Origin: Phallusia mammillata
Taxonomy: Eukaryota
DNA: 64,000 nucleotides
Reading direction: 5' to 3'
Assembly (NCBI GenBank): GCA_965637545.1
Contig: OZ281495.1
Coordinates: forward strand, 7,316,001 to 7,380,000
This document shows positions 4,237-47,400 of this stretch, piece by piece. The notes beneath the pieces were generated by a model. It was not told the DNA's origin. It did no database searches and saw only the letters and a program-made list of their open reading frames with translations. Each line of letters starts with the position of its first letter. The stretch's first letter is position 1. A program made the translations under genes and the position numbers.

Positions 4237-5144
4237 CAGGGGTGTCAAACTCAAACTGCCTTGAGGGCCAAAACCAACCTTTTAAGTAAGTCGAGGGCCA
4301 CACTATCGAAACGTTTGTTACAGTGTAACATGAAAATTTGCATGACTAAAAAGGTAAAAGTATTGTTGTAAATAACAAACAGGTTTTTAGTGTAGCAGAG
4401 TGAAAAATAAACAACTAAGCTTTATTGCTTTGTGTGCAAACAATGGTATACAATGACGTAACAATCGTCATTGCTGATTCTATCGGCTATTTCGATCATC
4501 TAATCCGGGCCGCCTCCGGCCCTGGAGGTCATTTTATCCGGCCCGCGAACACTTTTTTTGTTTGCCAAACCGTATTGACAATATTGTAACATTCAAAAAT
4601 TAATCTGGTCCTTACAAAAGTTTACCTGTCGCATTAATATTACCTAGTGTCACAGGATTACAACGCCCAGAATTGATCCAAAGCCAGATTGTTACGTCAC
4701 AGACAAGACTACAAGTGTCCATTGTGCGCAAAGAATTCCCTTATTCTTTTAGTTTTGATGTAATATACAGCATTGCTCTTAAGGCGTGACTAACTATACA
4801 ATTTAACAGTCGCATCACCAATCTTTAAATAGGATTGTAGAAAGACCATATCTTGGCGCACCTACAAAAATCTCCGCGCGGGATAAGTTTGGAAAGACGG
4901 CGCTAGGACATTTAAATTATGCGGCCCGCTCAAATCATTTTTAAACTTATCCGGCCGCAGTAAAAAAAGTTTGGTGACCCCTGATCTAATCAAAACGCTG
5001 CATATGCCACCAATAGAGAAGGATTGTATCATGTGAACTCATTGGTATGACAGGGTATTCCGCCTGAGTAAAACACATTACTTTGCAAAGGTACTTCGCG
5101 GACCGCACAAAAGCTCTTGGAGGGCCACATGTTTGACACCCGTG
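4237..5144. mobile_element. Non-autonomous hAT (Charlie/Buster-type) MITE
   Basis: TIRs CAGGGGTGTCAAAC / GTTTGACACCCGTG; degenerate 8-bp flanks GTATAGCC / ATGTAGCC. Confidence 0.8.
4506..4983. mobile_element. Nested hAT MITE lacking its left TIR
   Basis: Right end GTTTGGTGACCCCTG; perfect 8-bp TSD ATCTAATC at 4498-4505 and 4984-4991; left side begins in GGGCCG/GGCCC subterminal motifs. Confidence 0.75.
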
Positions 5145-5656
5145 ATGTAGCCAGTTACATACATCATTAACACATCCAAAAGAAAAAAAATGAGTTTTTC
5201 TTCGGCTGGGGCAAATCGTAGTATTGTATTTGTACTTTATTCATTTGGTCAGGAGTCATTATTCTGCATGGAAGCATAGGTAATTGTGTAACTCTTTTTT
5301 TTCACGGCGAATATTTCGCAAAATGGCGTTTTTAAAAAGGCCTGTATAATTGTGACGTCATTATGTGTGTGACGTATCCGGGTGATGACGTAGTTTATTA
5401 TGTATCAATATCGTCAGGTTACGTCATGGGTTAGGAAGTTATTGCGTTTGGTCAAGAAAGTACACCACACCCCTAGTAATCTATATTTAAATAATTACCA
5501 CAATCGCCATCATTATATAATTAGACACTTGCTTTGTATTGGTAACTTGAAAAAGTTGATTTAATATTATTTTAGCACCTAAAATAGAATAAAGTTGAAA
5601 CTTATTCAACACAATATTAGTAAAATTCGCACTAACAATACAACAACATTTTATGG

Positions 5657-5970
5657 GGTCACGTCTAAAACTGCGGGGCCACTTGACCCGCCTTATGCAA
5701 TAGAAAAAAACTGCGGGCCCACTTTATCCCGTTCTTGGCCCGCTTCTGGCAAGTATAAAAACTGCTGACCCAGCACTTTATCCCGTGCTTGACCCGCCTC
5801 TCGCAGGGAAAAACTGCGGGCCGGCTTGATCAAGCCGTGGACACGACTGTCACATGTCATTAAAATTTGATTTTGACCAGATCTGAACGGCAATAATTGT
5901 TTGAGGCGGGCCAAGTGCTGGGCCAAGCGGGCCAAGTGATCCAAGTGGGCCATCAGTTTTAGACGTGACC
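5657..5970. mobile_element. MITE-like insertion with 17-bp perfect TIRs
   Basis: GGTCACGTCTAAAACTG / CAGTTTTAGACGTGACC; GC-rich internal repeats (CTGCGGGCC, GGGCCAAG); absent from unit A; no clear TSD. Confidence 0.7.
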
Positions 5971-7039
5971 GCTGTCAGAATTTAAATTTGGTTACGCTTG
6001 ACCGAAAACTTCGCGCTCTGCTGATTTCAAAAAAGCAATTATTTTGATAGAAAAGTTTCACTATTTTCTTCACTGACAAATATATTTTCTATTAAGTGAC
6101 AAACGCAACGTACAAATTTAGTTTTTTTATACTTGTTATCTGCGCAAGGAAGTGTGCTCAACACAACTTCGAAACGCTTTTCTAGCAGCTGCAAAAAAAT
6201 CATGTAAAACTTTTATGTTTTCTACTCGATGGCGAAGTGTAGATTTCCGATTTTTTTTCCGAGGTATTTTCCGAGATTTCCGAGGTTATGGATTTCTTGG
6301 AGTCGTCCCAAAAGGGTTTGGAACTGACTAAATATTTCTTAGCTTTTGAAAGAACGGAAATATTATATTTTTGAAAACTTATTGTGACAAGGTAAGACTC
6401 TTTTCCTGCCGATCTATGAAAAGTTTTTGCACACGAAGATACAGGCATAAATGAAAACAATGTGCACTAATATGACGGCCGCTGCACTGGAGTATAAAGC
6501 TTCGTATCAAGCTTCATTTACCTCATCGAATATATTCTACGAAAACGTCGTTTACATAAGGTTTGAAAAGTCTAGTTTCCAAGTTGCAAATACCACGGTC
6601 GGTGGAATTCTACCGACCCTCGTATTCACAAGCTAGCTAGACAGGTAGCGCTTTTCAAGCTGTGCGGACAGAATCATGCAGTGACATCGGAGTCCAGTCA
6701 GCGGCTGAGAGCGCGGACGACGAAGAGTGGAAGATTTCTCCTGCATTCTACTTTCTCTGTACCAACGATGTGTCGTTCGACTGCAGTAAGCGTTAAAAAA
6801 ATCTACTTGTTACGCTGGTAATGTGTGTAATGTAAAAAAAAATCGAATTTTATGTGCAGTACGGTGCCACGTGGTTACATTTCGTGCTGAATTAGTAGTC
6901 TCTTTAGTACACTATAAGTTATTTGTGGTTATGGCAGCAATTGATTTGATTATAGGTGGCAGTAATAACGATTAGGATGTTTTGATTGGGGTTTCAATAC
7001 ACAAAACGCCACGTTCTTGTTGTGTAAGATCAGTAAACG

Positions 7040-7555
7040 TAAGATTGACCCAGACATGTTAGACAAAGATTGACCCAGACAAAGTTTTTTAAGTTTTTTG
7101 AGCAAACATTTGTGAACAGAAAATCTCTTGAAGATCACATCAGGACACATAAGGAAGCGAGTTTTTCCGAAAATGATGGTGATATTTGCACAGAGAAGAA
7201 ATCAACAAGTAATCAATAAAAAAATTTGTGCTGGCCGACCCCGAAAAAAATCAAGTTGAAATTCAAGAGCACCGTTTCAAATGTGATATTTGTGGAAAGT
7301 CTTTTACTCGAGAATGGAATCGCAAAAGACACATGGTGCAACATGTTGATGACAAACCTTTTCAGTGTGAAACATGCGAAAAACACTTCAAAACGTATGT
7401 TTTGTTAAAAAGCCACTAGTTAATTCATGCACACATTGAATCTTACAAGTGTGGTAGTTCACAGCGACAAGATGCGCTACAAGTGTGATGTTTGTGAAAA
7501 ACCGTTCAAGGGGAAACAGTATGTGAAACTACACAGTAGAAGAAACCACATTTAG
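7040..7555 (+). pseudogene. C2H2 zinc-finger pseudogene (copy of 2373-3512)
   Basis: Start codons mutated (AAGATTGACC versus ATGATGGACC), premature TAG at about 7417, finger 3 and fingers 5-11 deleted. Confidence 0.85.
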
Positions 7556-7624
7556 AAAGAGTCTTAATTGTGAGATTTTGGCAATAAGTATGAATGTGTT
7601 ACCAACAAAATCTACCATTTACAG

Positions 7625-7700
7625 CAGGGGTGTCCAACCTATTTGGCCAAAGGGCCAAATGCGGTTTAGAAATGTTTGCGCGGGCCACATGACTGTCTAC
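7625..7700. mobile_element. hAT MITE left-end fragment
   Basis: CAGGGGTGTCCAACCT followed by GGGCCA motifs; similarity to unit A stops exactly here; no right end found. Confidence 0.6.
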
Positions 7701-8039
7701 TGCTAATTTGTAATCTTACAAATAGATGTCTTATAATATCTAATTGAAACACTCAGGCCGAAACTCTAATCTTAGGAATGTGTATTATCCTCGTTTGCAG
7801 TTATAAAGACAATAAACATACCAAGATTTATAGTAAAGTCAACAAAGTTTTTACCACACGTCGACATTTCAATGTGAAGTTTAGCACTGTTTTCATCTAA
7901 CAAGTTTGGCAATATTCGGTGAGATGGAGTTAGTGCATTCAACTCGTGAACCTGTTTTATGAATTGTTTTCGCAATTTTAAGTTCACTGGGCTGTTCCCC
8001 ATGTCGTATAAACCAAAGCAAACGGTGAAACAATACCTT

Positions 8040-8677
8040 TGACCATTTTGATGCACAGTATTTAAGGAATTTCGTGACTGGGCACAGATTTACGACTGTC
8101 AAGAGTGGATATATATGTTTCCACCAAGCCAGTTATTCTAAGATTGATGACAACGACTGTACACAGGGTAACAACAACAAACAAACTAACATTTTCTGTA
8201 TCGGCGGACAGTGCGCAAAATCAAGCAGAGAATGTAACAAAACGTTACAAATGTGATATTAGTGAAAAGTGATTTGCTTATAAATACGAACGCAAAAAGC
8301 ACATGGTAATAATGCATTTCGACGAAAGGCCATTTCAGTGCGAAAGGTGTCATAGCAGATTTAAAACGAAAGGCACCGTGAGAAACCACATGCTGGTTCA
8401 CTCTGCTATAAAACGTTTTAAATGTGTGGTGTGTGACAAACATTTCGTCAAAACTAAAGATTCAAAAGTACATCAGTTCATTCATACCGATGAGAAACCT
8501 TGCGAATGTGTTTATTGCAAAAGAAGATTTAGTGCACCTTCAAGCAGAAGACTGCATCTGAAGATTCTCACCGGTGAAAGAAAACACAAGTGTAAAGTGT
8601 GTGAGAAATCATTTACGCAACCTCGTACACTCGATAACCATATAATCACACACACAGAAGAAAAATCGAGTCAATAG
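8040..8677 (+). pseudogene. C2H2 zinc-finger pseudogene (third paralogue)
   Basis: QASYSKIDDNDCTQ matches EASYSKNDDNNCTE of the intact gene; frameshift and stop near 8200-8270; about four fingers in ORF 8303-8677. Confidence 0.8.
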
Positions 8678-10149
8678 CGCAGAAACCAATAAATTTCGAA
8701 TTAACATTAAAATGAAATATGGAATCAACAGAGAGACTAAATGGCAAACACACATAGACGGTGTTTGCACGAAAAAGAATTTATTATTTAGTGGGAAACC
8801 GTTTTCTCTATGTTTATGATGTTGCTATATTTATTTTATGATGTGCTAGCGTCCTCCAATTAACGTGAAAACTCACAGTAACCAGGTTTGCTAACATTGA
8901 AACTGGGGTCAAGGGTGCTGGACCATTTGCCTGCCCGGTAAGCATTTTTACGTAAATTGCATTCAAAATTATGCTTGCGCCACCTACCGGAAATTAGCAA
9001 GACTGGCTACTGTGAGTTCTTACGTCATTAGCTCCACCTTGCCCAGGTTTCACATGACTGCACCCTTATTTCGAGCTACGCAAGAAACAACAGTTTTTCA
9101 TGGTGTTAACATGTGCATTGATGAGAAATAAGTTATTAGATGTTTTGGGAACTACATTTTTACGTACAGATTCGTAGACATCGAAGCATCAGAACGTTTT
9201 TTTTCTTTAATAGTTATTATGACGACGCCGAAATGAAGTGCTTCGCACCCAGAAATACCGGCTTTAATGTAAACATTGTGCAATATTGTTACGTTGGCTG
9301 GTACTTCGGTTTAAATCGCAGGTTCTAGGCCTTTTTGTCTCGAAAGTCACTGTCACGAAACCATGAAAGGAGAGAATAACAACATAAACTCGAATTTATT
9401 GGTAGACCATAGATATATGCCCGGAAATATACAAAAAGGGCGATACTAAGAAGTAAATTCGAACGGTAAAAACTTTAGCTGGTGGAAGGCTTATGATGCA
9501 AAGTTTTCTGACATTTGGAAAAAGGAAACTGAGATAATCTCAGACACTGACAAAACGCAACAACAAATATATAGCTTTGCGTTTTATCCACTTATCACTA
9601 GTCGATTTTCAGGCTTGTTTAAAATTTAGAAAACATTTGACCACCAAAACCACAAACAAAACAAATTTCTGCGATGATTTATTGTGTAGTGAAACCACAT
9701 TCACAAATAACTGCGGCAAATTGATTCAGCGCTTATACACAGGGATCGAAAATGTTTCATGTTATGCAAGCTGTAAAATCCTAATATCAACTCAGAACAT
9801 TGTCAACCCAGACCAATATTATCTAGCAAGGGGTATGACATTTTACATGCCTATTTCCAAAGTAGGCTTGTCTTTCCAGAGGAAAATTACAAGAAATCGC
9901 TGGCGAAAGTTTAAATTGCAAACAAAAAACAGAAACGGGCATTTCACTATGGAAACCACATAAAGTGTTTGTCTCAAAAAATATTAGTTTAAAGGTTTTT
10001 AAAGTTTGCCATAAATATCACATAACTTACAAAGGTTTATTTTCTTTTGTATGAATCACAACTTTAGCGATTAACGAACGCTTGTTTGTTTTGAAAAACA
10101 TTACATCGAATGGGTTTCACCATTGTGGTATATCATATGTTTTTGTAAT

Positions 10150-10950
10150 TCACGTTTGGAACGATACGTTTTTTTCACAAGTATCACGCTTGAACGGTTT
10201 TTCACCTGTGTGAGTCATCCAATGAGTTTTAAGCGCCCCAGATTGAATGAATGATTTTTCACAAACGTCACATTTATATTTTCTTTCTCCAGTGTGAATA
10301 CTCAAATGTTTACTTCTGTTTGAAGTCAAATTAATTTTTTTGTCACAGTAACTACAAGGGTAAGGTTTCTCACCAGTATGAATCAACTCGTGTCTTTTTA
10401 AATCTCTTTTTTCGATGAAACGTTTAGCACACATCTTACACGTGTAACGTTTAAAGTCGGTATGAATCAACAAGTGTCTTTGTAGTTGGTAGCTGATTTT
10501 AAACCGCTTTTCGCAAATTTCACACTTAAAGGTCTTTCATCATTGTGTACTAACAAATGGGTGTGAAGGGCTCCTTCAAATTTAAAACTTTTCTCACTTT
10601 TTTCTCATCTGAATGAACCAACACATGTGATTTCAAATTTTGCTTGCTTTTGAACTTCATGTCGCAATTTTCGCACTGAAAAGGTCTATCATCAGAATGC
10701 ACGAACAGCATGTGCGATCTGCGGCCTCGCTGGTGAGCAAAAGACTTTTCACAAACATCACATTTGAAAGGTTTTTCTTTCAGCATATGTTTAAAGTTTG
10801 TTGCATTTTTGAGTTGAACTTTGGTCATTAGTCTGAATGTGGTCAACGGATGCAATTACTTTTTTTGGTTGACCTCTTGTAGCGCCACCTTGCTTTGAAA
10901 GTTGTACATTTGGCTTACACAAAATATATTTTGAATACACCATTTAACAT
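10150..10950 (-). pseudogene. C2H2 zinc-finger pseudogene (fourth paralogue)
   Basis: Finger arrays in ORFs 10550-10855 and 10150-10473, linked by frameshifted finger remnants (HTHLLVHNDERP; CEICEKRFKISYQLQRH). Confidence 0.8.
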
Positions 10951-11739
10951 CATGATATGATTGAACACAAGAAAAAAACATGTTTTTGTCTATATTCCTA
11001 AAGCAAACATAGTACTCAAACCCTACATAAAGATATTTAACCATCACATTTTAATTTTTAATAGATTAACATCCAAAGTGAACAGTTCTTTGAAAACATC
11101 GATGAAAGTATATGTTTACTTCTTTGGACCAACAGAAGATTTCTAAAGCACGAAAGTTGGGCAAACGAGGGTGTCCTGCAACCGTAAAAAATTTACATTC
11201 CGTACACTTTCTTCTGTTAGTAAACTTGCATAATGAAAAACTATGTGACACCTGGTTTTAACGTTTTCGTTCATTTTCAGATCAAATTTATGTCGGGTTG
11301 AAAAGCAAAAATACTGTTTTGTAAACCTAAATAGCTTAACAGGCAGACATGTTTTAAAATCAAATTATAGGCTACCAACCGAAACTGAACTTAACTGGCG
11401 TGACATATACCCATTCGCCACTCTTTGACTCTGAATAGCACACTGTGCCTGCCTGATGTTTAGCGTACAGCCATCAAGTACGTTACGCTGGGTTTTTCAA
11501 GCAATATATTATCCGCCAGGCTGTGTGACCAACCAGCAATCAAGTAAATTGCTAATACATGGGCACTTGTTTTGGGTTTGCTAACTTCAATATCCCACAA
11601 GCAAAATGAAACTGGTGTGACCTAATGCCCACCCTCCTCTAAAACTTATTGTTTACACCATTGTCTACTATTGTTCATCGTGTTTGTTGTCTTTCTCTTT
11701 TTTCTTTCTCATCCTTTGTTGCAAGGCTTTCTTGGATAG

Positions 11740-24753: not shown

Positions 24754-27187
24754 ATGGCAAAGAAAATTGAAGTAAGTTATCGAAGGCATATCAGTTAGTG
24801 CATTTTTGCCTAGTTTTGCGAGCCTAAGTTGTTATTTTGCTATTGTCAGTTGCAAAAGTACGACGCAGAAGAATTTCAGTGTTTTACTGGAAGTGCTGGT
24901 AATCTTGGATCGGGTACTTATGCTGTAGTGATACTTGCAACTCATCAAGTTTTAGGTCAAGTTGCATTAAAGTGTTTTCCTGCTAGGGGTGGCCAAGCTA
25001 TGGAGGAACAGTAAGTAGCATTCTACTTTGTCAAACCTTAAAACTTTTACCTTTGTAAAATTTCCCTACTACACTAGAAATTAATAGCAAAATCAATCGT
25101 TCTATGCTGCTGGTCCGTTTGGAAACGATTTTTAGATTTACCTTGGTTAGTAACGTTTTAACTAGCTGCTGTCACACAGGGTTAAAAGCGAACTTGCCTG
25201 TCTTCAAAGATCAAACAACGAATATATTGTTCGTGTATTTGGCTGGACAGAATGGTCGGGTGGAAATGCTATTATCATGGAGTGTTGCGACTATGGCAAT
25301 CTCACGACTGTATTGTTGAACTCAAACATTGAACTGTCGGTGCCACTTCTTTTGCAAATGTGCACGGAAATGGCAAAAGGCCTGGCACACGTCCATAACT
25401 TTAGCAAGGAAAAACGCATGGTACATACTGATGTGAAGCCAGGCAATGTCCTTCTGGCAAAAGAGTTGCATTGTAGATTATCTGACTTCGGTGGGGCAAA
25501 AATATGTAACTACACAACTGCAGTTACGTCAGCTCCCAATCCCAAACGTGATCAATACACTTTAGCTTATACTGCTCCAGAGGTACTATGCCAACCCAGT
25601 TTGCCTTTGAGAAAAGAGCAAGACACTTATGGTTTTGGAATTACTACCCATATGCTTTTGACCCGACGTTTCCCATTCAATACAGCTAAAGATGTCTTTG
25701 TGGAAGCAGTTAAGTCAGGAATTCGACCTGACACTGCAGAGATTGAGCTCCTGAAGAAAAAATCAAGTGGTAAAGATCTAGAAAGTATTCAGGTGATGGA
25801 AGACGTGATGAAAAAGTGCTGGGAACAAAACCCGGAAGATAGGCCTAATATGTTGGAAGTCGCGAAGCGATTAAGTGAGCAACTGGCCAAATATCAACGT
25901 TTTGAGATTATCAGTAGTGTCATGAAAGCCATGAAACATATGACTCCTGTAGACGATGCTTCAAACCTCACAGGACAATGGGTTTCGCTTGACAGATTTA
26001 TGCCGGAAAGCCGTACTTTCATAGGTGTTCGAGTGCAAGATGACCAACCTTTAGTTGTTGCATCAGAAGGTATGTTCAAAATTCCATATTTAAGTCTGTT
26101 TATCATATAGTGGGCAAAGTCTTTGCTGGTGAGGCGTCTCATAAGCATTTCCATGCTGCAAGGAAAAAGTCAATCATATGGGCAACGCGTTGTTTTCCAG
26201 TTCGTTATTGCTAAATCCCTGGTATAACTATAAATCCCTGGTATATAACTATAAGACATACGTTTACTAATCCTTGTTTCCTAATCTTTCAGATGCAGTG
26301 TTGAAACAACTGCAAGAAGATCCATCTTTTAGAGAAATATTTCATAACGATTGTAAGACGTGTTTCTAGTCTCAAAAACATAGTTTTAAAAGTGTCTAGA
26401 TATTTGACAAGTTTTTGTTTATGTTGTAGTCAAAACGGCTTCATCGCTGATGCAGCGCTACGTGGACTTCGCGACCAACGGCCAATTTAACAACAACTTT
26501 ACTGTGGCATCCGAACTGCTGAGGATCATCGAATCTAGTCCAATATCTGCGGCCGACAGTGCCGAAGTGTACGCCGCAAAGCTTACAAAGAAAAATAAGT
26601 TCCTCCTTGCATTGTTGTTTTACTATATAGCTGGAACTTTGTACAGAAATAAGCGAAACAAATCGTACGCTTTGGACGGAATTGTTCGCTGCTGTGAGGG
26701 GCTTTTTGATGTCAGCGAAATGATGATGGCCCAAGATCCAGCAAACACAAATATACTGTCTAACCTCAGTATCAAATGCATTTACCAGTTGTGTAACATT
26801 GTTGCAAAGCTATCGTCTGTTGACAAGAAAAACAGATGCTTGACTTGGTCTTGGTGCATGTTCTACATGGAGTGCACCTACCATAGCACAAAGGACTGGA
26901 AAAGTATGGAAGCAACGCTGAATGAGGCATTACGAGGTTTAAACACGGTTTTCGGTGGAGAAGTTAAAAGGCAGTTGATCTACGCTCATTGCCTAAACGG
27001 GCTTGGCGTGACATATAAGCACCAGAAAAATTACCAAGCAGCTTGTCAACACTACAAGCAAGCGATAGAAGCGTACAGGCATCTTATTGAGGAAGGCAAC
27101 AAGTCTGAAATGGCAAATTACATTGAATTGGTGCAAAACAATCATCGCAAAGCCGAGCTTAAACTCGTTAAATCTCCACCAACATAA
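24754..27187 (+). CDS. RIPK-like (TKL group) Ser/Thr kinase with C-terminal TPR-like helical domain, about 628 aa, 5 exons
   Basis: Exons 24754-24771, 24850-25010, 25180-26069, 26293-26352, 26430-27187 (1887 nt, in frame). GSGTY, VALK, alphaC Glu (KSELAC), HTDVKPGN, DFG, YTAPE, CWEQNPEDRP; TPR-like YAHCLNGLGVTYKHQKNYQAACQHYKQAI. Confidence 0.85.
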
Positions 27188-27670
27188 ATGAATTTCCGAT
27201 TTTCATATCAATGCGTAAATAAACTTCTAAGTCATTTCTTAATCTGAAATGCACAGTATTTTTTCTTCATTGCAGTTAAACTGCTAAGTTTCACTTTTTA
27301 CATGGTGTTCGTTTAATCACACTTTTGTTAGTTTTTCTTCCATTTTAAAAACACTCACAAAACAGATTTAGCATACACAATAATAAAAGCATGAAAACAA
27401 TTAAATTGTGGTGTGAATTTGAAGCAATCTGGTGCATGCTTTGCTTCGTATATTTGGTAAACGTGTGGTATTCATTATGTAAATCAGACTTGTGTTTGTT
27501 GTTAAAAGTGAGAAATTAGGTCAACCAAAATATCTTGAGAAACACACAACAGTGTTAACAATAAAAAGGGCACTGTTACGATATTTTCTAAAAGCAAAAG
27601 AATGGCACAACTTGGAAACCTGAATGATATGAGTAGTAGTGGTTCGTCCCGGGGCTCCCTCCACCTGTTT

Positions 27671-27788
27671 GGTCCAGTCACCCCCAAGTGGCTACCGCCA
27701 CCTGGTCCCGTCACCCAAGTGGCTACCGCCACCTATTTTGGTCCCGTCACCCAAGTGGCTACCGCCACCTATTTTAGTACAGTCACCT
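27671..27788 (+). repeat. Subterminal 33-36-bp tandem repeats of the Polinton end (mirrored at 38173-38290)
   Basis: GGTCCCGTCACCCAAGTGGCTACCGCCACCT(ATTTT) three times plus a partial copy. Confidence 0.9.
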
Positions 27789-27927
27789 GTTGGTTGATTA
27801 TGTCATGCGGGTATTAATGTGGTCGTATCACCATTGTTCTGTGAGATCGCGACCGGTCGCGAGAGAGAGAGAGGACTAGAGCCGGCGGCGGTTTTTGTCG
27901 CCGTTCGCAAAAGTCGGAACTTGGTTG

Positions 27928-27935
27928 TATATAAA
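27928..27935 (+). promoter_or_regulatory. TATA box upstream of the Polinton ATPase
   Basis: TATATAAA about 45 nt before the ATG at 27979. Confidence 0.5.
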
Positions 27936-27978
27936 GCGTGTGCGTTGATTATTTTGTTAGTCTAGTTTTCATTTGAGA

Positions 27979-28261
27979 ATGGAGTTTATTCATCCATTTA
28001 CGTGTGTTGTTGCGGGTCCGACGGGTTGTGGAAAGACTTTTTTCGTTTCGCGTTTGATAAGTGAGAACTTGGTTACACCGCCTGCGGAGCGTGTGGTTTG
28101 GTGTTACGGTGTAGAATTTGTTCGCGGTCTTTCAACTGAATTTGACTCTTCGAAGAGAACACTTTTGATCATTGACGACTTGATGAGTGAATGCGACAAA
28201 AGCGTGACGAATCTATTTACAAAGGGAAGTCATCATAAGAATATAAGCGTGATTTACATTG
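27979..28261 (+). pseudogene. Truncated Polinton/adintovirus A32/FtsK-like DNA-packaging ATPase, left arm
   Basis: MEFIHPFTCVVAGPTGCGKT (Walker A), LLIIDDLM (Walker B), LFTKGSHHKNISVIYIV; cut by the LTR at 28262. Confidence 0.8.
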
Positions 28262-28828
28262 TGTCACAAATGTGCTATAGACCGACCTCCGATAGTACAT
28301 GACCTAATTCACAGGCGACGTTATCTTGCAATCACCGGACGTTCATTGTGCGTGCCAAGTCTTTTGTTGCAGGCTGCAGCCTCACACTGTCTTTTCCTTT
28401 GTTTTCGCCCAATGTATCAGTCTTATTGTGTCGCCCGTCACTCGCCGCAGCCGTTATTGTTGTAAATGTTCAAGTCCAGCAGAGTTAACGTTTTGACCCT
28501 AGCCATTGTGACTCGAACGATATAAATAGGCCTGTTTTGTAAAACGAGTCATTATAATACAAACTCGCGCTGGTAGAAGTTTATACGGTAGGGCGTTTAG
28601 CGTATGTGTGTTTATACAATTGTAATTTGATATAGTGGTTTAACTTACAATCGTTTACTGTGTCTGTAAGTAATCATATTTCTTGTATGTTGATTCTATT
28701 TGAATAAGGCAATAAAGGTGTAGGAAAAGTGGTTATTGCTGATCAGAGTACACGAGCGTTAGTTGTTAAAGAACTTCCGATAGTCAGTCCCAAATCTTTT
28801 GCGTAACCGTGCAAACGGGAACGTGACA
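28262..28828 (+). mobile_element. Gypsy 5' LTR, 567 bp
   Basis: TGTCAC...GTGACA inverted termini; TATAAA 28521-28526; AATAAA 28711-28716; PBS follows; first 215 bp match 33511-33725. Confidence 0.92.
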
Positions 28829-28830
28829 TC

Positions 28831-28848
28831 TGGGGGCTCGTCCGGGAT
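28831..28848 (+). promoter_or_regulatory. Primer-binding site complementary to the tRNA-Pro 3' end (mirrored at 37113-37130)
   Basis: TGGGGGCTCGTCCGGGAT is the complement of the eukaryotic tRNA-Pro 3' end ATCCCGGACGAGCCCCCA; it starts 2 nt after the LTR. Confidence 0.9.
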
Positions 28849-28896
28849 ACTGACTTAAAAACGCGAAGTTGAACACTAACCCCTGTAAGATCGGCA

Positions 28897-31800
28897 ATGA
28901 TGTCTATAAACCGTTATGTGGAGGCGGAAAAACAGATGGGACTGGTTGACCAAGACTTGCGTCAATACGTCGATGAGCAAATAAATAAGGAAGAAGAACG
29001 TGAGGAAAGGAGACTTAACCGTGAAGCCGAGACTGAGCGAAAGAGACTTGAGATCGAGCTGAGGAAACTTGAGGCCGACGCTGAACAGAAAAGACGTGAA
29101 GATGAGCAAAGAAAACAAGAAAGGGAAGAGCGGCAACAAGTCCGCGAGCACGAACTGGCTATGAAAAAGCTTGAGGTGGAAGATAGACAAAGCCGCGAAG
29201 AGACCAGAAGCACTTCGACAACGTGCAGCAGTAACGCTGGTGCCGGCAAGTGTCCAGAGCTTCCCAAATTTGTGGACGATGTGGATGACATGGACGGATA
29301 TTTGCTGCGGTTTGAGAGATACGCAGAGAATAGCGGTTGGGAGAGAAGCCAATGGGCGCCATGGCTCAGTGCACTGCTGACGGGAAAAGCGATGGGAGTA
29401 TACTCTCGACTGTCAGCAGAAGAGGCCAGGGACTACGAGGTGCTGAAACGTGCGTTGCGGGAACGGTATGGATTACGCGAGGACGGATACCGCCACAAGT
29501 TTAATAATGAAACCCAACAGCAAGGCGAAACGGTTTCCCAGTATTTCGTGCGGTTTGAAAATTACTTGGATAGTTGGGTGGAAATGGCCGGCATCGAAAA
29601 GACCTACAAAGGGCTTAAGGAACTTTTCCTTCGCGAAAAGTTCCACAAAGACAGTTACAAGGAACTGTCGCTGTACATGAGGCAGCACTCATCAAACGAT
29701 TTAAAGGAGTTCGCGGAAAAGGCCGATAGGTTTATTGGGCCGTTAAAAAAGACGATTAGCGGGCACAGCTGCGACACGAAACATCCCCGAGCTGCTGTGT
29801 ATTATTCCAACTGTGGTAGACCAATGCAACCAGGCGCGAGTCATCCTTTGTTGGGCCCCACTGACCGCCGATGCTTTATCTGCAACGCTCAAGGACATAT
29901 TGCAAGAGACTGTCGTTTGAGGAGAACCGAAGAGGGGCCACATCACCAAACAGACAGAGCAGAGAACGCCTTGGTTGTTCAGGTTCGGAACCAGAACCTT
30001 AAGGCGACAATGGGTCGAGTAGGACAGAGATCGGTGGAAACGATTCGCGATACGGGATGTACCTCAGTAGTGATTCGTAGGTCCTTAGTCTCAGATCACC
30101 AACTAACGGGAAAAGTGCAATACGTCCAGGGTTTCAAAGGGAAGGCTGAACCTGCACCGGTGGCGCTCAATACAGTCGACACGCCCTATTACTCAGGTAC
30201 GGTTGAGGCAATTTGCGTGACCGACTTAAACGTCGACCTAATCATTGGCAACGTACCTGGGACCAGAAATTGGGGCTCACCAGATCCAAACTGGAGTGCC
30301 GCACCCGTGGAAACCTGTGCAGTTGTCACACGATCCGCAGCACGTGAGCGGGGCCAAACGAAACCCTTAAGAATATCTGGCTGCAAAGGATTCGACGTTA
30401 TAAATCGGGAGTCTTTTCTACAAGCCCAAAATGAAGATGCATCATTGGATAAGTTTCGGGACAAGTCAGGGACAAGGTCACAGGGCGACGGTCATGTGAA
30501 GTTTGTTCGAAAGGGGAACCTCCTGTACAGAGAGTTCTGGCATCCTAAGTTCAACTATGGAAAGCCAATTCAACAGCTGATGGTTCCTATGGCTTATCGA
30601 TGCAAGATAATGGAGGTAGCTCATGACTCCATGATGAGTGGCCATATGGGTATAAAGAAAACGCTAGACCGCATTCTTAGAAATTTTTACTGGCCTGGTG
30701 TAAGAGGAGATGTTCAACGATTTTGCAAATCCTGCGATGTCTGCCAGAAGACGATTTGCAAGGGGAGAGTTGCAAAAGTTCCACTTCAGAGAATGCCAGC
30801 AGTCGATGAACCATTTAAAAGAGTTGCAGTAGACTTGGTCGGCCCAATTCACCCACCAAGTGAAGAGGGGCATCGCTATTTACTGACTTTGGTCGATTAC
30901 GCCACCCGGTATCCTGAGGCAGTGCCGTTGAAGAACATCACTACAGAGGATGTGGCGGAAGCGTTGGTTGATATTTACAGCAGGGTGGGCATTCCATACG
31001 AGGTGCTATCGGACCAAGGAACCCAGTTCATCTCCAGCTGCATGAGGGAGGTCGAACGGCTTTTAAAGGTGCGCCATCTAAAGACTACTCCGTATTCTCC
31101 GCAATGCAATGGGTTAGTTGAAAAATTTAATGGTACTTTAAAGACAATGCTGAAGCGACTGTGCAACGAGCAGCCGAAGCAATGGCATCGGTATGTAAAT
31201 CCCTTACTGTTTGCTTATCGTGAAGTACCCCAGGAATCCACTGGGTTTGCGCCGTTTGAGCTTCTGTATGGTCGAACGGTCAGAGGACCGCTTCACATCC
31301 TCAAGGACATGTTCACCAACGAGACAACAGATCCAGAAACCATGTGCAGCTACCAATATGTGTTTGAGCTTCGAGAGAGACTGGAAAATACCATGCAAAT
31401 CGCCAAAGAAGCAAGTGTGAGGGCACAAACCAGGTACAAGAAGAATTTTGACCGCAAGGCAAGAAGGCGGACGCTTAAGGAAGGTGATCAGGTTTTAGTT
31501 CTGCTCCCTACCGATAGCAACAAGTTGCTCATGCAATGGAAGGGACCGTTTCAAGTCGAAGGGAAAGTTGGAATCAATGACTACCGCGTAAACGTCAAAG
31601 GTAGTACTAAGCTTTACCACATTAACTTATTAAAGGAATACGTCCAACGAGGATCAACAGAAGAAAATGGATCGACGACAAGCGACGCGCTGGTAATGAG
31701 TGCTTTGTGCCATAATGAAATTCCCGACTCGGTGGACGACGACGAATTGCTGGAGTTAAACTTGGGAACCCACCATGAAACAACCGATGACCTGGTCGTC

Positions 31801-33419
31801 AGTGATTCTCTCACCGACTCACAGAAGCAAGAAGTCAGGAAGATTGTCGAAGCACATGTAGAGGTATTTTCTGAAAAGCCCGGATGCATGAACTTGGTTG
31901 AACACAGTATTCAACTTACCAACGAAAAGCCCATACGATCGAAGCCCTACGCAGTACCTTTTAACGTGCGCGAATCATTACGAAAAGATATTCGCGAAAT
32001 GTTAGACACAGGAGTGATAAGACCTTCAACGTCATCATATGCGTCACCGGTGGTTATTGTTCGAAAGAAGGATGGATCAAACAGGATTTGCATCGATTAT
32101 CGAAAACTTAACAAGGTAACGGTGTTTGATCCTGAACCTATGACAACGGCCCAGGATGTTTTCCACGACTTGAGAGACGACAAGTACTTTTCGACGATCG
32201 ATTTGACTAAAGGATACTGGCAAGTAAAAGTCACTGACTCAGACGTACACAAGACAGCTTTTGTGACACCGGATGGATGCTACGAATTTTGCAAGATACC
32301 ATTTGGGATNNNNNNNNNNNNNNNNNNNNNNNNNNNNNNNNNNNNNNNNNNNNNNNNNNNNNNNNNNNNNNNNNNNNNNNNNNNNNNNNNNNNNNNNNNN
32401 NNNNNNNNNNNNNNNNNNNNNNNNNNNNNNNNNNNNNNNNNNNNNNNNNNNNNNNNNNNNNNNNNNNNNNNNNNNNNNNNNNNNNNNNNNNNNNNNNNNN
32501 NNNNNNNNNGGATGGATGCTACGAATTTTGCAAGATGCCATTTGGGATGAAAAACTCCAGTGCAACGTTTGTACGCGGGATGCGAAAGTTGTTGAAAGGT
32601 ATGAGGAACGTGGAACATTACATAGACGACGTCATTGTACATACGAAAACTTGGGAAGAGCACCTTACGACGCTGCAAGAGTTGTTTAAGCGACTGGCGC
32701 AAGCCCACATAACTGCACGACCAACCAAATGTCTCCTGGGTGCAGGTGATGTTAATTTTCTGGGGCATCACATCGGGAAAAATGTCATTGGCTTGCATCA
32801 GGATAACGTGGAGAAAATAAAAGACGCATCAAGGCCAAGAACCAAAACGGAGGTCAGATCGTTCCTGGGGTTAACCGGCTACTATCGGGACTACATTCCA
32901 AACTATGCCTCTATAGCTGTGCCGCTAACGGATCTTACCAGAAAGGGTCACCCGGATACCGTCGATTGGGGCGACGAACAACAAACAGCCTTTGACAACC
33001 TTAAATCAGTATTGTCAAGCAAGCCAATTCTACATCTACCGGACACTACACGTGAATTTGTTTTACGGACCGACGCCTCATGCGAGGGTATTGGGGCCGT
33101 TCTGCTCCAAATGCACGATGAACAATACTTTCCAATAAGCTATGCGAGTAAAAGGTTATCGAGTGCAGAGCGACGATACTCCACCATCGAGCGCGAATGC
33201 CTAGCAGTCGTATGGGGGGTTAAAAAATTCATGGTATACCTATACGGACGGAAGTTTATCTTGCAAACAGATCATCAACCATTGTCCTTTTTGCAAAACG
33301 CCAAATTTGACAATGACAGAATCATGCGCTGGGCAATGTACCTTCAAAACTTTGACATTCGCTGCGAGTATATTAAAGGATGCGAAAATGTTGGGGCAGA
33401 TTATCTCAGCCGAATGTAA
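28897..33419 (+). CDS. Gmr1-like Ty3/Gypsy gag-pol polyprotein (Gag-PR-IN-RT-RNase H), about 1427 aa if the gap overlap is merged
   Basis: CCHC knuckle CFICNAQGHIARDC; protease DTG; IN HHCC and D,D(35)E (VAVDLVGP, LSDQG, GLVEKFN); GPF; RT CIDYRKLN, MPFG, YIDD; RNase H TDAS, ERECLA, TDHQPL. Merging the 39-bp overlap across the gap gives 4284 nt in frame. Confidence 0.9.
32310..32509. other. Assembly gap (200 N) inside the RT region
   Basis: Flanks overlap: 32271-32309 equals 32510-32548 except one base (A32298 versus G32537). Confidence 0.97.
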
Positions 33420-33510
33420 TTGGGTTTGGATTGCTTGTTATTGTCGCCACATTTGTGTTTGTTTAACGTAAATTTTCTCGAAAGAAACATTTCTTTTAAA
33501 AACGGGTTTG

Positions 33511-33725
33511 TGTCACAAATGTGCTATAGACCGACCTCCGATAGTACATGACCTAATTCACAGGCGACGTTATCTTGCAATCACCGGACGTTCATTGTGC
33601 GTGCCAAGTCTTTTGTTGCAGGCTGCAGCCTCACACTGTCTTTTCCTTTGTTTTCGCCCAATGTATCAGTCTTATTGTGTCGCCCGTCACTCGCCGCAGC
33701 CGTTATTGTTGTAAATGTTCAAGTC
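33511..33725 (+). mobile_element. Truncated Gypsy 3' LTR (first 215 bp only)
   Basis: Matches 28262-28476, then switches at AGTC into the reverse complement of RT sequence. Confidence 0.92.
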
Positions 33726-36700
33726 AGTGACTTTTACTTGCCAGTATCCTTTAGTCAAATCGATCGTCGAAAAGTACTTGTCGTCTCTCAAGTCGTGGAA
33801 AACATCCTGGGCCGTTGTCATAGGTTCAGGATCAAACACCGTTACCTTGTTAAGTTTTCGATAATCGATGCAAATCCTGTTTGATCCATCCTTCTTTCGA
33901 ACAATAACCACCGGTGACGCATATGATGACGTTGAAGGTCTTATCACTCCTGTGTCTAACATTTCGCGAATATCTTTTCGTAATGATTCGCGCACGTTAA
34001 AAGGTACTGCGTAGGGCTTCGATCGTATGGGCTTTTCGTTGGTAAGTTGAATACTGTGTTCAACCAAGTTCATGCATCCGGGCTTTTCAGAAAATACCTC
34101 TACATGTGCTTCGACAATCTTCCTGACTTCTTGCTTCTGTGAGTCGGTGAGAGAATCACTGACGACCAGGTCATCGGTTGTTTCATGGTGGGTTCCCAAG
34201 TTTAACTCCAGCAATTCGTCGTCGTCCACCGAGTCGGGAATTTCATTATGGCACAAAGCACTCATTACCAGCGCGTCGCTTGTCGTCGATCCATTTTCTT
34301 CTGTTGATCCTCGTTGGACGTATTCCTTTAATAAGTTAATGTGGTAAAGCTTAGTACTACCTTTGACGTTTACGCGGTAGTCATTGATTCCAACTTTCCC
34401 TTCGACTTGAAACGGTCCCTTCCATTGCATGAGCAACTTGTTGCTATCGGTAGGGAGCAGAACTAAAACCTGATCACCTTCCTTAAGCGTCCGCCTTCTT
34501 GCCTTGCGGTCAAAATTCTTCTTGTACCTGGTTTGTGCCCTCACACTTGCTTCTTTGGCGATTTGCATGGTATTTTCCAGTCTCTCTCGAAGCTCAAACA
34601 CATATTGGTAGCTGCACATGGTTTCTGGATCTGTTGTCTCGTTGGTGAACATGTCCTTGAGGATGTGAAGCGGTCCTCTGACCGTTCGACCATACAGAAG
34701 CTCAAACGGCGCAAACCCAGTGGATTCCTGGGGTACTTCACGATAAGCAAACAGTAAGGGATTTACATACCGATGCCATTGCTTCGGCTGCTCGTTGCAC
34801 AGTCGCTTCAGCATTGTCTTTAAAGTACCATTAAATTTTTCAACTAACCCATTGCATTGCGGAGAATACGGAGTAGTCTTTAGATGGCGCACCTTTAAAA
34901 GCCGTTCGACCTCCCTCATGCAGCTGGAGATGAACTGGGTTCCTTGGTCCGATAGCACCTCGTATGGAATGCCCACCCTGCTGTAAATATCAACCAACGC
35001 TTCCGCCACATCCTCTGTAGTGATGTTCTTCAACGGCACTGCCTCAGGATACCGGGTGGCGTAATCGACCAAAGTCAGTAAATAGCGATGCCCCTCTTCA
35101 CTTGGTGGGTGAATTGGGCCGACCAAGTCTACTGCAACTCTTTTAAATGGTTCATCGACTGCTGGCATTCTCTGAAGTGGAACTTTTGCAACTCTCCCCT
35201 TGCAAATCGTCTTCTGGCAGACATCGCAGGATTTGCAAAATCGTTGAACATCTCCTCTTACACCAGGCCAGTAAAAATTTCTAAGAATGCGGTCTAGCGT
35301 TTTCTTTATACCCATATGGCCACTCATCATGGAGTCATGAGCTACCTCCATTATCTTGCATCGATAAGCCATAGGAACCATCAGCTGTTGAATTGGCTTT
35401 CCATAGTTGAACTTAGGATGCCAGAACTCTCTGTACAGGAGGTTCCCCTTTCGAACAAACTTCACATGACCGTCGCCCTGTGACCTTGTCCCTGACTTGT
35501 CCCGAAACTTATCCAATGATGCATCTTCATTTTGGGCTTGTAGAAAAGACTCCCGATTTATAACGTCGAATCCTTTGCAGCCAGATATTCTTAAGGGTTT
35601 CGTTTGGCCCCGCTCACGTGCTGCGGATCGTGTGACAACTGCACAGGTTTCCACGGGTGCGGCACTCCAGTTTGGATCTGGTGAGCCCCAATTTCTGGTC
35701 CCAGGTACGTTGCCAATGATTAGGTCGACGTTTAAGTCGGTCACGCAAATTGCCTCAACCGTACCTGAGTAATAGGGCGTGTCGACTGTATTGAGCGCCA
35801 CCGGTGCAGGTTCAGCCTTCCCTTTGAAACCCTGGACGTATTGCACTTTTCCCGTTAGTTGGTGATCTGAGACTAAGGACCTACGAATCACTACTGAGGT
35901 ACATCCCGTATCGCGAATCGTTTCCACCGATCTCTGTCCTACTCGACCCATTGTCGCCTTAAGGTTCTGGTTCCGAACCTGAACAACCAAGGCGTTCTCT
36001 GCTCTGTCTGTTTGGTGATGTGGCCCCTCTTCGGTTCTCCTCAAACGACAGTCTCTTGCAATATGTCCTTGAGCGTTGCAGATAAAGCATCGGCGGTCAG
36101 TGGGGCCCAACAAAGGATGACTCGCGCCTGGTTGCATTGGTCTACCACAGTTGGAATAATACACAGCAGCTCGGGGATGTTTCGTGTCGCAGCTGTGCCC
36201 GCTAATCGTCTTTTTTAACGGCCCAATAAACCTATCGGCCTTTTCCGCGAACTCCTTTAAATCGTTTGATGAGTGCTGCCTCATGTACAGCGACAGTTCC
36301 TTGTAACTGTCTTTGTGGAACTTTTCGCGAAGGAAAAGTTCCTTAAGCCCTTTGTAGGTCTTTTCGATGCCGGCCATTTCCACCCAACTATCCAAGTAAT
36401 TTTCAAACCGCACGAAATACTGGGAAACCGTTTCGCCTTGCTGTTGGGTTTCATTATTAAACTTGTGGCGGTATCCGTCCTCGCGTAATCCATACCGTTC
36501 CCGCAACGCACGTTTCAGCACCTCGTAGTCCCTGGCCTCTTCTGCTGACAGTCGAGAGTATACTCCCATCGCTTTTCCCGTCAGCAGTGCACTGAGCCAT
36601 GGCGCCCATTGGCTTCTCTCCCAACCGCTATTCTCTGCGTATCTCTCAAACCGCAGCAAATATCCGTCCATGTCATCCACATCGTCCACAAATTTGGGAA

Positions 36701-37064
36701 GCTCTGGACACTTGCCGGCACCAGCGTTACTGCTGCACGTTGTCGAAGTGCTTCTGGTCTCTTCGCGGCTTTGTCTATCTTCCACCTCAAGCTTTTTCAT
36801 AGCCAGTTCGTGCTCGCGGACTTGTTGCCGCTCTTCCCTTTCTTGTTTTCTTTGCTCATCTTCACGTCTTTTCTGTTCAGCGTCGGCCTCAAGTTTCCTC
36901 AGCTCGATCTCAAGTCTCTTTCGCTCAGTCTCGGCTTCACGGTTAAGTCTCCTTTCCTCACGTTCTTCTTCCTTATTTATTTGCTCATCGACGTATTGAC
37001 GCAAGTCTTGGTCAACCAGTCCCATCTGTTTTTCCGCCTCCACATAACGGTTTATAGACATCAT
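33722..37064 (-). pseudogene. Inverted, 3'-truncated copy of the gag-pol ORF (Gag-PR-IN-partial RT), still open for 1125 aa
   Basis: ORF-track translation is identical to the + copy for 1114 aa (to VKVTD), then runs 11 aa into antisense LTR (stop at 33687). Confidence 0.9.
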
Positions 37065-37132
37065 TGCCGATCTTACAGGGGTTAGTGTTCAACTTCGCGT
37101 TTTTAAGTCAGTATCCCGGACGAGCCCCCAGA

Positions 37133-37699
37133 TGTCACGTTCCCGTTTGCACGGTTACGCAAAAGATTTGGGACTGACTATCGGAAGTTCTTTAACAACT
37201 AACGCTCGTGTACTCTGATCAGCAATAACCACTTTTCCTACACCTTTATTGCCTTATTCAAATAGAATCAACATACAAGAAATATGATTACTTACAGACA
37301 CAGTAAACGATTGTAAGTTAAACCACTATATCAAATTACAATTGTATAAACACACATACGCTAAACGCCCTACCGTATAAACTTCTACCAGCGCGAGTTT
37401 GTATTATAATGACTCGTTTTACAAAACAGGCCTATTTATATCGTTCGAGTCACAATGGCTAGGGTCAAAACGTTAACTCTGCTGGACTTGAACATTTACA
37501 ACAATAACGGCTGCGGCGAGTGACGGGCGACACAATAAGACTGATACATTGGGCGAAAACAAAGGAAAAGACAGTGTGAGGCTGCAGCCTGCAACAAAAG
37601 ACTTGGCACGCACAATGAACGTCCGGTGATTGCAAGATAACGTCGCCTGTGAATTAGGTCATGTACTATCGGAGGTCGGTCTATAGCACATTTGTGACA
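37133..37699 (-). mobile_element. Inverted complete Gypsy 5' LTR in the right arm
   Basis: Mirror of 28262-28828. Confidence 0.92.
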
Positions 37700-37982
37700 C
37701 AATGTAAATCACGCTTATATTCTTATGATGACTTCCCTTTGTAAATAGATTCGTCACGCTTTTGTCGCATTCACTCATCAAGTCGTCAATGATCAAAAGT
37801 GTTCTCTTCGAAGAGTCAAATTCAGTTGAAAGACCGCGAACAAATTCTACACCGTAACACCAAACCACACGCTCCGCAGGCGGTGTAACCAAGTTCTCAC
37901 TTATCAAACGCGAAACGAAAAAAGTCTTTCCACAACCCGTCGGACCCGCAACAACACACGTAAATGGATGAATAAACTCCAT
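37700..37982 (-). pseudogene. Truncated Polinton packaging ATPase, right arm
   Basis: Mirror of 27979-28261; identical translation in the ORF track. Confidence 0.8.
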
Positions 37983-38424
37983 TCTCAAATGAAAACTAGA
38001 CTAACAAAATAATCAACGCACACGCTTTATATACAACCAAGTTCCGACTTTTGCGAACGGCGACAAAAACCGCCGCCGGCTCTAGTCCTCTCTCTCTCTC
38101 GCGACCGGTCGCGATCTCACAGAACAATGGTGATACGACCACATTAATACCCGCATGACATAATCAACCAACAGGTGACTGTACTAAAATAGGTGGCGGT
38201 AGCCACTTGGGTGACGGGACCAAAATAGGTGGCGGTAGCCACTTGGGTGACGGGACCAGGTGGCGGTAGCCACTTGGGGGTGACTGGACCAAACAGGTGG
38301 AGGGAGCCCCGGGACGAACCACTACTACTGATATGGTAAACACAAGTACAAAGACAAATTTAAATTCCAAAAGAACAAATGTTCCGATGGTGCGATGGTG
38401 CGATCAAGCATCAACTTGTTGCAA

Positions 38425-44400: not shown

Positions 44401-47400
44401 ACCGCTGAGCTGAGGTCTTTCATCTCGGCGTTTTTCACCTCGACGGACAAAACGTGACTAATGACGTCGCTTGTCACGTGACGCGTCGGGCCTTCACCAA
44501 ATGTGTTACCGACCACTTGATTTTGCTGCTCCACAAAAAGGGAGTTTTTTCGGTAAAGGACTGCGCCAACTTGAAGTGTATTAAGATTGTACTTGTTGCG
44601 AGCCTCGTGTAGAAGATTGTGGGAGAGATAAACTTCACTGGCTTGTTGTTCTAAGCCACTAACTGGTTCCCCTAAAGTTGTACCTCCTTCTCCAGTATAC
44701 TCAGCTTCATTAGTCAGGTCCTCGATTTCAATACCGACATTTTTGCGATTGATTCTCAAGTTACCCTAACACACAACACAGATTACATTGCATAACTGTA
44801 CACATCAATCTGACTTTTGTCTTAGATTTATTTTAATTAAACTTTTTAATTCTAAGAAGTTCTTGTGCTTGACAATTTTCTTTATTTCCATTGAATAATG
44901 TGACAAGGATTACCCAGTTAAATTATTTTAACTAAACTTTTTAACTTCAAGAAGTACTGGTGCTAGACAATTTTTTTTTTAGTTCCATAATGCTGACTTA
45001 CTTCGTAAACATGAAAATTATCATTGAATATTAAATATCACAAACCTGTGACACGTTATAGTGATTGGTGACGGTTTCGACGGCAACAAGCACGTCATGG
45101 GAAGATTGTTCGTCAAAGTTTTGCGATGAAACGTCAAGAAGTGTGCTTAGTTGACTTGAAAGTAAGCTTACAGTCCCCTGGTTTATGTTTGTTTTGTTCT
45201 GGAGTCCGACTATTGACTGTGTTAGTTCTTTAGCTTGAAGCGGGGTGTAAGTTGTAGGGTCTGAAAAAGTAAGTAAATAAGGCAATGAATTGGTTATTGC
45301 TTTCAAAGTTAATTGGGAAGTCAATTAGAATACTACTTGACGTATCAAAACAACTAGTTTGTACATACTCCCTAAAACCAAAAATGACAACAGCGTTATT
45401 GTGTATTATCTAGGACAGTGTTTATCATTTTTTCCAGCGAACGGAGTATATTCGTAGTATTGGAAAGGCAAAGAAAGCTTTTTTTTATGCCACAAAGTTG
45501 TAAGTCGTGCCAGGCCGGGTTTGAGCTCAGGTTTCTTCAAAAAACGGGCTTGATTCGGGTCTGACTTTACACATTTTTTTAAATAAATTTACTTAGCTAA
45601 GTAGCCAATTGCTTGACCTGATCTAATGTCAAACAGTCCTAAAACGCTTTATTCACGACCAATTGTCTATTGCGTTTGTTGTCTTGGTCTTTCCTGAGGC
45701 TTTAATGTGCATGCCTGTCGATCAAACTTTTGGATCTAAACTGGCTAATTTTCAAAAAATGATTCGGGTTTAAGCCGGGTTTTGGGCTCGTACTTTCAGG
45801 TTCGGACTCGTTTACAACTCTGGTATGCCACAAGACTATCACGAACTTTTCTTCGTTAGAGATAACAAATTAGTCCTATATAATTGTCTACAAAACCCGA
45901 TCGCGGGCACACTAATGTGCGAACCTATCGCTTATAGACACATATAATACATTATAACTAAACGCAATGATCCTTAAATATAAATAATAGACATGAAGGT
46001 AAATGGCCGTGTTGTTTTAAGTTGGGATGAAAACAAATTTCGCTCTTTTTTCTCTTACCCTGGTCTTGGCATATGAAAGCGCTATATGTATCACAGTAAG
46101 TATCATCCCATTTCCAGGTTTTATCTCCCCACAACTGAACACAAAATGCACCGACTGTCCTTGGCTCTGCCCTAGCCCAGTTGCTGTAACTGTGAAAAAA
46201 CAGATATAGTTAATAGTGACAGTAACCAGCGGTGATCTAATACACTTATGTTTTTTTTACGGAAACCGGAATATCAACCTAATCCCAGGCATATTTATCA
46301 AAAAGCTGTTAAAATATATTTCAAAGATGTTACATGCGCCTATAATTCAAAGATGTTACATGAGTTCAAAACTTAAATNNNNNNNNNNNNNNNNNNNNNN
46401 NNNNNNNNNNNNNNNNNNNNNNNNNNNNNNNNNNNNNNNNNNNNNNNNNNNNNNNNNNNNNNNNNNNNNNNNNNNNNNNNNNNNNNNNNNNNNNNNNNNN
46501 NNNNNNNNNNNNNNNNNNNNNNNAGAGTTGTAGGGGCAAGCAATATGTAAATTTTAAAGTCTACAATGACTTCCTGTTATCTCTGTCTGGTTAACATAAA
46601 GATACACCACATTGCCAAAAGTAATAATTTCATCCCCAGCAAAATCGGGTCATTGTGAAAACATTGTGAGCAATTTTATCGCATGGTAATTAGTAATCAC
46701 ATGTCATGAATCTTCACCCTTTAACTCAAGCCCTACGAAAAGGGGTATGTGTTGCACTAGGGCAGTGGTCGTCAACCTATGGGTCGCGACCCCAAGTAGA
46801 GTCGCCTAAACTTTTTCTGGGGTCGCAATAAGTCGCTTTAATTTATTGCATTTTAAAATTGATTGCAGAAAATAAAACTAATATTATGTTCTTTTAGATC
46901 GCAACTTTTGCTCTTGTTTTGTGGTACAGCTTGCTACCTCGTGTTGCAATTAAATCGTGGTAGTGAAAAAAGCACAAAATGCCTTTATCGCGTAACAATG
47001 GGTTTGGACAACGTGAATTATGACTTAACACTATAAGTTTGTATTATTTAAGGTGACACCAGAATGAGTGAATAGTTATTTATGTAACGTACCCTACTAT
47101 GTCAAATTTTTCTAATCCCGTTTTCAACCACGTGGCTGTGTAAAGCAGGATTTAGTGCAACGAGTGTATTAGAAACGAAACATCGTAATCGATTGGAAGT
47201 GGAGCATGACATGCGGTTAAGCTTGTGCAAAGTCAAGCCGCGGCTTCAAAAACTTGCGGACAGTATACAGGCGCAACCATCTCACCAACAGTGCAAACTA
47301 AGTGTTGAACAATTTGACAAGTTTGTGTTCCGAAAATTGGGTTTATGTCTTAAATGAAACGCCTTAAAATTTATTTTCGTAATACTTTTGTATAGCCATT

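Follow-up and report, generated by a model that had tools for sequence, protein, structure and literature searches.

A 64,000-nt stretch of the Phallusia mammillata genome (GCA_965637545.1, contig OZ281495.1, positions 7,316,001 to 7,380,000 of the forward strand; hereafter the window) contains a palindromic insertion of 10,698 nt. Judged by its sequence, this duplicated unit is a derivative of a Maverick (Polinton) that carries a retrotransposon as cargo. An earlier note on the same DNA had described a retrotransposon-derived inverted duplication; instead, both ends are those of a Maverick. With a probability of roughly one half (about 0.52), we read the unit as a copy-back, two-left-end, non-autonomous Maverick that would have arisen by fold-back during single-strand replication outside the chromosome and would have been integrated in trans. 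The 10.7-kb insertion is recent and segregates between individuals.

Two Maverick ends around a retrotransposon

Self-comparison of the window detected one large inverted repeat. Its left arm (27632-32239, plus strand) and right arm (33722-38329, minus strand) comprise 4,608 nt each and show no mismatch when compared base by base after reverse complementation of the right arm. The repeat extends 630 nt past the long terminal repeats (LTRs) of the retrotransposon on either side and reaches the Maverick termini at 27632 and 38329. The palindrome is thus not bounded by the LTRs and is longer than the span first noted (28521-37440), which rules out a hairpin made of retrotransposon sequence only. 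The loop (32240-33721) holds the 3' part of the reverse transcriptase (RT) gene, RNase H and a truncated LTR. It spans 1,482 window positions including an assembly gap of 200 N (32310-32509), at which the two abutting contigs have 39 nt in common apart from one mismatch, and its true length is therefore about 1,243 nt. That the N stretch conceals real sequence was ruled out, because contigs of the retrotransposon family bridge the gap in three of the four runs described below and the spacing in a family copy on C3 is 239 nt shorter there.

A direct 6-mer flanks the whole unit (27626-27631 and 38330-38335), which together with one hexamer amounts to 10,704 nt. The insertion and its junctions were checked in Logan contigs of four runs (X1-X4). 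In X2 and X4, a contig joins 27624 to 38329 and skips exactly these 10,704 nt, so that the empty allele lacks the unit plus one hexamer, as expected of a 6-bp target-site duplication. Both filled flank junctions are present in X1 and X3. Together, the empty and the filled sites show that the insertion is real and polymorphic. Both empty-site runs still carry the window's Maverick subfamily elsewhere, as seen with 27746-28262: X2 contains 514 nt without a difference to this sequence, and X4 a contig of 5,981 nt that carries an extra 33 nt and ceases to match the window at the point where the LTR is inserted.

The unit begins with (AGT)3 and ends with (ACT)3, in agreement with the Maverick terminal motif (AGT)2//(ACT)2; (AGT)n//(ACT)n termini and a 6-bp target duplication are given as Maverick hallmarks in PMC8097293. 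Next to the left terminus lies the 5' part of a Maverick packaging ATPase gene (27979-28261, plus strand, 94 codons), which is interrupted by the LTR and recurs at 37700-37982 in the right arm. It matches Pfam Adeno_IVa2 above the cut-off (E 1e-6) and Pox_A32 with E 2e-4, and is 78% identical to the ATPases of Mavericks with a full gene set elsewhere in the genome. These related elements encode the ATPase, an integrase-chromo gene and a 1,256-aa open reading frame (ORF) with motifs that we take to be those of PolB; Pfam gave only weak DNA_pol_B_2 matches for this ORF (E 0.03-0.06) and no match for ORFs of 218, 317, 436 and 198 aa, and searches of PDB and phage sequences were uninformative. Near-identical Mavericks of a neighbouring subfamily are located at C3:10285523-10302060, at C7:17447352-17464385 and on C79; their gene set is complete, and their terminal repeat measures only about 52 nt.

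In two other ends of the window's own subfamily, the match to the unit breaks off after element base 268; one of these ends continues into the PolB gene. The native terminal inverted repeat is therefore probably about 268 nt long (27632-27899, plus strand), which makes the right end of the unit, closing with (ACT)3, a second ATPase-side, i.e., left, end. Short tandem units of 36 nt lie inside the Maverick terminal repeat (27672-27792). The two Maverick ends and the retrotransposon sequence explain the unit completely; genes for PolB, integrase or capsid proteins of its own are not found in it.

The cargo begins with a 5' LTR of 567 nt (28262-28828, plus strand), with a TATA-like TATAAATA at LTR base 260 (28521) and AATAAA at LTR base 450 (28711). 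Directly 3' of the LTR follows a primer-binding site (28831-28848, plus strand), presumably of the tRNA-Pro type. One plus-strand frame (28897-32309) runs up to the assembly gap and contains, in the order of the Pfam domains, gag, zf-CCHC, aspartic protease, integrase and the 5' part of RT; a second (32510-33419, plus strand) contains the 3' part of RT and RNase H (RVT_1, RT_RNaseH). The 3' LTR (33511-33725, plus strand) is identical to 28262-28476 over its 215 nt. The full LTR of the right arm (37133-37699) is oriented toward the left LTR and is followed inwards by antisense gag and pol. An integrase upstream of RT and RNase H in a Gypsy-type gag-pol is the hallmark of the Gmr1 clade of Ty3/Gypsy elements, a clade reported from tunicates (PMC8220671), and the retrotransposon appears to be of this type, an assignment made by domain order.

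The LTR interrupts the ATPase gene at the identical base in both arms, showing that the retrotransposon inserted before the duplication. Near-identical copies of the family (98-99.5%) are present on C3, C4 and C6. Among 74 matches in the genome, about 30 are short derivatives of retrotransposon bases 450-914 (28711-29175), 74-96% identical. These share the R-U5-PBS-gag start and have a very high contig depth, and they represent an abundant non-autonomous family of the window retrotransposon.

Proposed fold-back origin of the palindrome

The fold-back joins base 215 of the 3' LTR to antisense pol. At this central junction (33722-33725) the joined sequences share a 4-nt microhomology, upstream of which 11 of 17 positions match. 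The probability of at least 4 nt by chance is 0.017, and 0.0005 if the 11/17 match is added, a post hoc estimate. Transfer of a strand by reverse transcriptase was rejected as the cause, since the duplication includes DNA beyond the LTR.

For Polinton replication, a racket-shaped single-strand intermediate has been proposed (PMC4196379). Current ideas on how Mavericks replicate are a model that few direct data underpin. A recent fold-back whose junction can still be read, together with older arms that change in concert, is the footprint expected of such an intermediate. In the order of events that we propose, a Gmr1-type element first inserted into the Maverick ATPase gene; that this preceded the duplication is shown by the common insertion base. 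During replication, the growing strand would have halted at base 215 of the 3' LTR and paired back on pol at the 4-nt microhomology 1.24 kb upstream; as the junction indicates, the folded strand would then have copied itself up to the left terminus. The resulting two-left-end molecule may have been integrated in trans by a Maverick integrase, to which the 6-bp duplication and an older palindromic family at three loci point. As a predicted by-product, long double-stranded RNA would follow from the facing LTRs together with the loss of the poly(A) signal.

This older family consists of three homologous palindromes (C4:11515019-11530127, C1:20931272-20942059 and C3:5771080-5779504) that are unrelated to the window unit. 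They share arms with PolB fragments and a common loop, which is flipped between the C4 and the C1 element; the start of the ATPase gene is present in both arms of the C4 palindrome, which is also flanked by a 6-bp duplication. Over 849 gap-free columns, the two arms of one element are 1.1, 1.8 and 8.0% apart, and arms of different elements 8.1-13.1%. Arms that are more alike within than between elements indicate that such palindromic units have spread. For this reason, we favour fold-back outside the chromosome over a repair in place. A small inverted repeat related to the older family is located at C2:17462775-17464062 and adjoins another 200-N gap.

Read depth favours the presence of two arms. 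A contig spanning the Maverick-to-LTR junction was found in two of the four runs (X1 and X3), and its depth in X1 was 789, compared with 248-356 per assembly copy in four unduplicated intervals. Across 10 intervals in X1, a two-arm model gives 214-394 per copy, whereas a one-arm model gives 248-439 and leaves 789 as an outlier. In X3, the window-type depth was 114 inside the ATPase gene and 75 and 44 in the flanks. Furthermore, in competition with an identical pair of other copies, the window allele prevails at a site in the arm (32103) and loses at a site in the loop (32961); three of the four allele sites in the arm were excluded as confounded by neighbouring differences, leaving this one clean pair. 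An element flipped between haplotypes would leave one and not two junction copies per flank, and was set aside on this basis, for which depth provides weak ground.

Several observations weigh against a palindromic unit that formed outside the chromosome. No contig crosses the central junction in any of the four runs, both carriers included. Contig depth is a poor measure of copy number, only one of the 10 depth intervals discriminates between the two models, and the library of X1 and its relation to the assembled animal are not established. In addition, the assembly gap lies within the loop. The central junction is single-copy in the assembly (one of 12 matches), where no donor copy of the window unit was found either, and this particular unit need not have moved as a palindrome. 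Within the older family, a target duplication flanks only one of the three palindromes, and the arm distance of the C3 element (8.0%) is close to the between-element range.

The gap in the loop, the complete identity of the arms and the central junction missing from the contigs of both carriers could also be accounted for if the true allele were an ordinary Maverick with the retrotransposon, whose right arm or centre was mis-assembled from a chimeric read or a haplotype mix-up. Beyond the contig pieces listed, a further one that crosses this junction is not compatible with the binned depths in X1 and X3. Logan contigs, however, indicate presence and not absence. Simplification of the SPAdes type removes short links of low depth between deep repeats, and the LTR depth in X1 is about six times that of a single copy. 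Heuristics of this type are applied to Logan contigs (bioRxiv 2024.07.30.605881) and could have erased the junction. Because of this simplification and of the high LTR depth, we do not regard the missing contig as decisive. Also weighing against a mis-assembly are the doubled depth of the Maverick-to-LTR junction and the contrast between arm and loop alleles in X1, a microhomology that exceeds chance, and the location of the right arm, the junction and the loop within one gap-free stretch. The earlier note had named an assembly artefact as a possible refutation; the palindrome is present in the assembly and agrees with the two-arm depth, the central junction is unseen in contigs, and we consider an artefact improbable.

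A real palindrome could also have originated in place. An ordinary Maverick would have integrated and gained the retrotransposon, and fold-back synthesis at a later break would have restored the link to the right flank via the terminal repeats of about 268 nt. Such a history preserves the 6-bp duplication equally well and fits a single-copy junction without a donor in the assembly; moreover, terminal repeats extended by recombination are described for Galileo (PMC3573991). Nevertheless, a single, still polymorphic site would have had to undergo three events while no difference accumulated between the arms or between the LTR parts, and the older family has palindromic units at three loci with arms that change together. 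We therefore treat an origin in place as possible but doubtful, and keep an extrachromosomal fold-back with subsequent integration in trans as the preferred reading.

Predicted hairpin RNA and silencing

According to the earlier note, the locus is a Mu-killer-like hairpin silencer of the retrotransposon family. An arrangement from which a hairpin could form is indeed present, and the likeness to Mu killer goes further than the note described, since Mu killer likewise has two copies of one transposon end (PMC3440606). The duplicated unit, however, is a Maverick derivative, and the silencer role is a prediction. As stated there, the 3' LTR breaks at base 215, before the TATA-like motif and AATAAA. 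The two LTRs indeed face each other, and convergent firing of the right LTR is predicted from this arrangement. Together with the AATAAA missing from the 3' LTR, it predicts a hairpin RNA with a loop of 1.24 kb and a stem that measures at most 3.69 kb, counted from the putative transcription start to 32239; the former estimate of about 3.7 kb for the stem stands, and that of about 1.3 kb for the loop is replaced by 1,482 positions with and about 1,243 nt without the gap.

The AATAAA at LTR base 450 is kept in all seven LTR copies that align over the site, including those of a subfamily that is about 70% diverged. The TATA-like motif is kept in five of the seven and absent from the two diverged LTRs, which weakens the promoter assignment. 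On the plus strand, the antisense arm holds poly(A)-like hexamers (ATTAAA at 34830 and 36456, AATAAA at 36225 and 37971), so that read-through could stop 1.1-2.5 kb into the arm and the stem would be of that length. We judge the chances that the locus makes some read-through RNA to be even, and measurable silencing in trans to be unlikely. In X7, a run guessed to be RNA, contigs of the retrotransposon family are present and neither the Maverick-to-LTR nor the central junction was found; X7 is probably a non-carrier.

A possible source of read-through lies upstream of the unit, in host kinase and TPR exons (25166-27187, plus strand; Pfam Pkinase, TPR). These exons are followed by AATAAA at 27382 and 27560, the latter 70 nt before the insertion. 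Elsewhere in the window, duplicated C2H2 zinc-finger genes are clustered in both orientations (1-11000), and a second N stretch of 145 letters (46379-46523) is unrelated to the palindrome.

The strongest form of the silencer idea holds that the locus is a Mu-killer-like trans-silencer of the retrotransposon family and was kept for that effect. The anatomy allows this under either real origin of the palindrome. The facing LTRs agree with it, as does the loss of a poly(A) signal that the other family members retain; the near-identical copies on C3, C4 and C6 and the many short derivatives are potential targets, and there are precedents in Mu killer (PMC3440606) and in an antisense-nested EVADE copy, which was proposed as a silencing trigger and left untested there (PMC11624286). 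On the other hand, the insertion is very young and polymorphic and thus provides no evidence that selection has retained it; the TATA-like motif is not kept in the diverged subfamily; and a shorter stem could result from the hexamers of the antisense arm. For Mu killer itself, the RNAs associated with silencing were short and antisense, not a long hairpin (PMC3440606). That silencing is established as the main role of the locus is, in our view, very improbable.

At present, this is a structural finding about one young insertion. A wider conjecture, which we consider unlikely to hold in full, is that Mavericks routinely shed copy-back, two-left-end satellites that integrate, spread as giant palindromes and fold their passengers into perfect hairpins that act as RNA-silencing loci. 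If true, the window locus would be a segregating, Maverick-made 'killer' allele caught at birth, directed against an active Gmr1 family with abundant short derivatives. Since the insertion segregates, carriers and non-carriers could reveal whether an inverted duplication that arose spontaneously can trigger the silencing of a retrotransposon family in an animal, in the way known from Mu killer in maize.

Comparison with known systems

Copy-back and snap-back defective viral genomes and adenovirus genomes with two left ends arise when a template switch duplicates one end, and they depend on a helper. The product in the window differs from the defective viral genomes in being integrated in a host chromosome and inherited. 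Non-autonomous Polintons are represented in Repbase. With Mavericks and Polintons the unit shares (AGT)n//(ACT)n termini, the 6-bp duplication and a packaging ATPase gene beside the end (PMC8097293, PMC6431247, PMC3014272). In contrast to these, it lacks polymerase, integrase and capsid genes, both of its ends are ATPase-side, and its inverted repeat measures 4,608 nt, mostly retrotransposon cargo, compared with 46-1,447 nt in intact vertebrate elements. Compared with elements of the Gmr1 clade, the cargo is missing the greater part of its 3' LTR, and a portion of it occurs twice, in opposite orientations.

Copies of Galileo with two extended or recombinant terminal inverted repeats, and Foldback elements, are similarly non-autonomous, with terminal repeats that recruited internal sequence (PMC3573991). 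However, these are cut-and-paste elements of the P superfamily, with repeats of up to about 1.26 kb and without viral-type replication or retrotransposon cargo. Mu killer, like the window unit, is partly duplicated in inverted orientation and thereby has one element end twice; a fold-back RNA was proposed for it (PMC3440606). It is, however, a MuDR derivative with demonstrated dominant silencing of its own family, whereas the window locus has Maverick ends, its potential target is a passenger retrotransposon, and LTRs that lie inside the unit and face each other are its candidate promoters. Two-left-end Mavericks were not found described in the literature searched, in which most matches were judged by their listing and which left subscription papers and Repbase outside its scope. 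The parts of the system are known; what is new is a copy that carries a retrotransposon as cargo, whose junction can be read and whose empty site is known.

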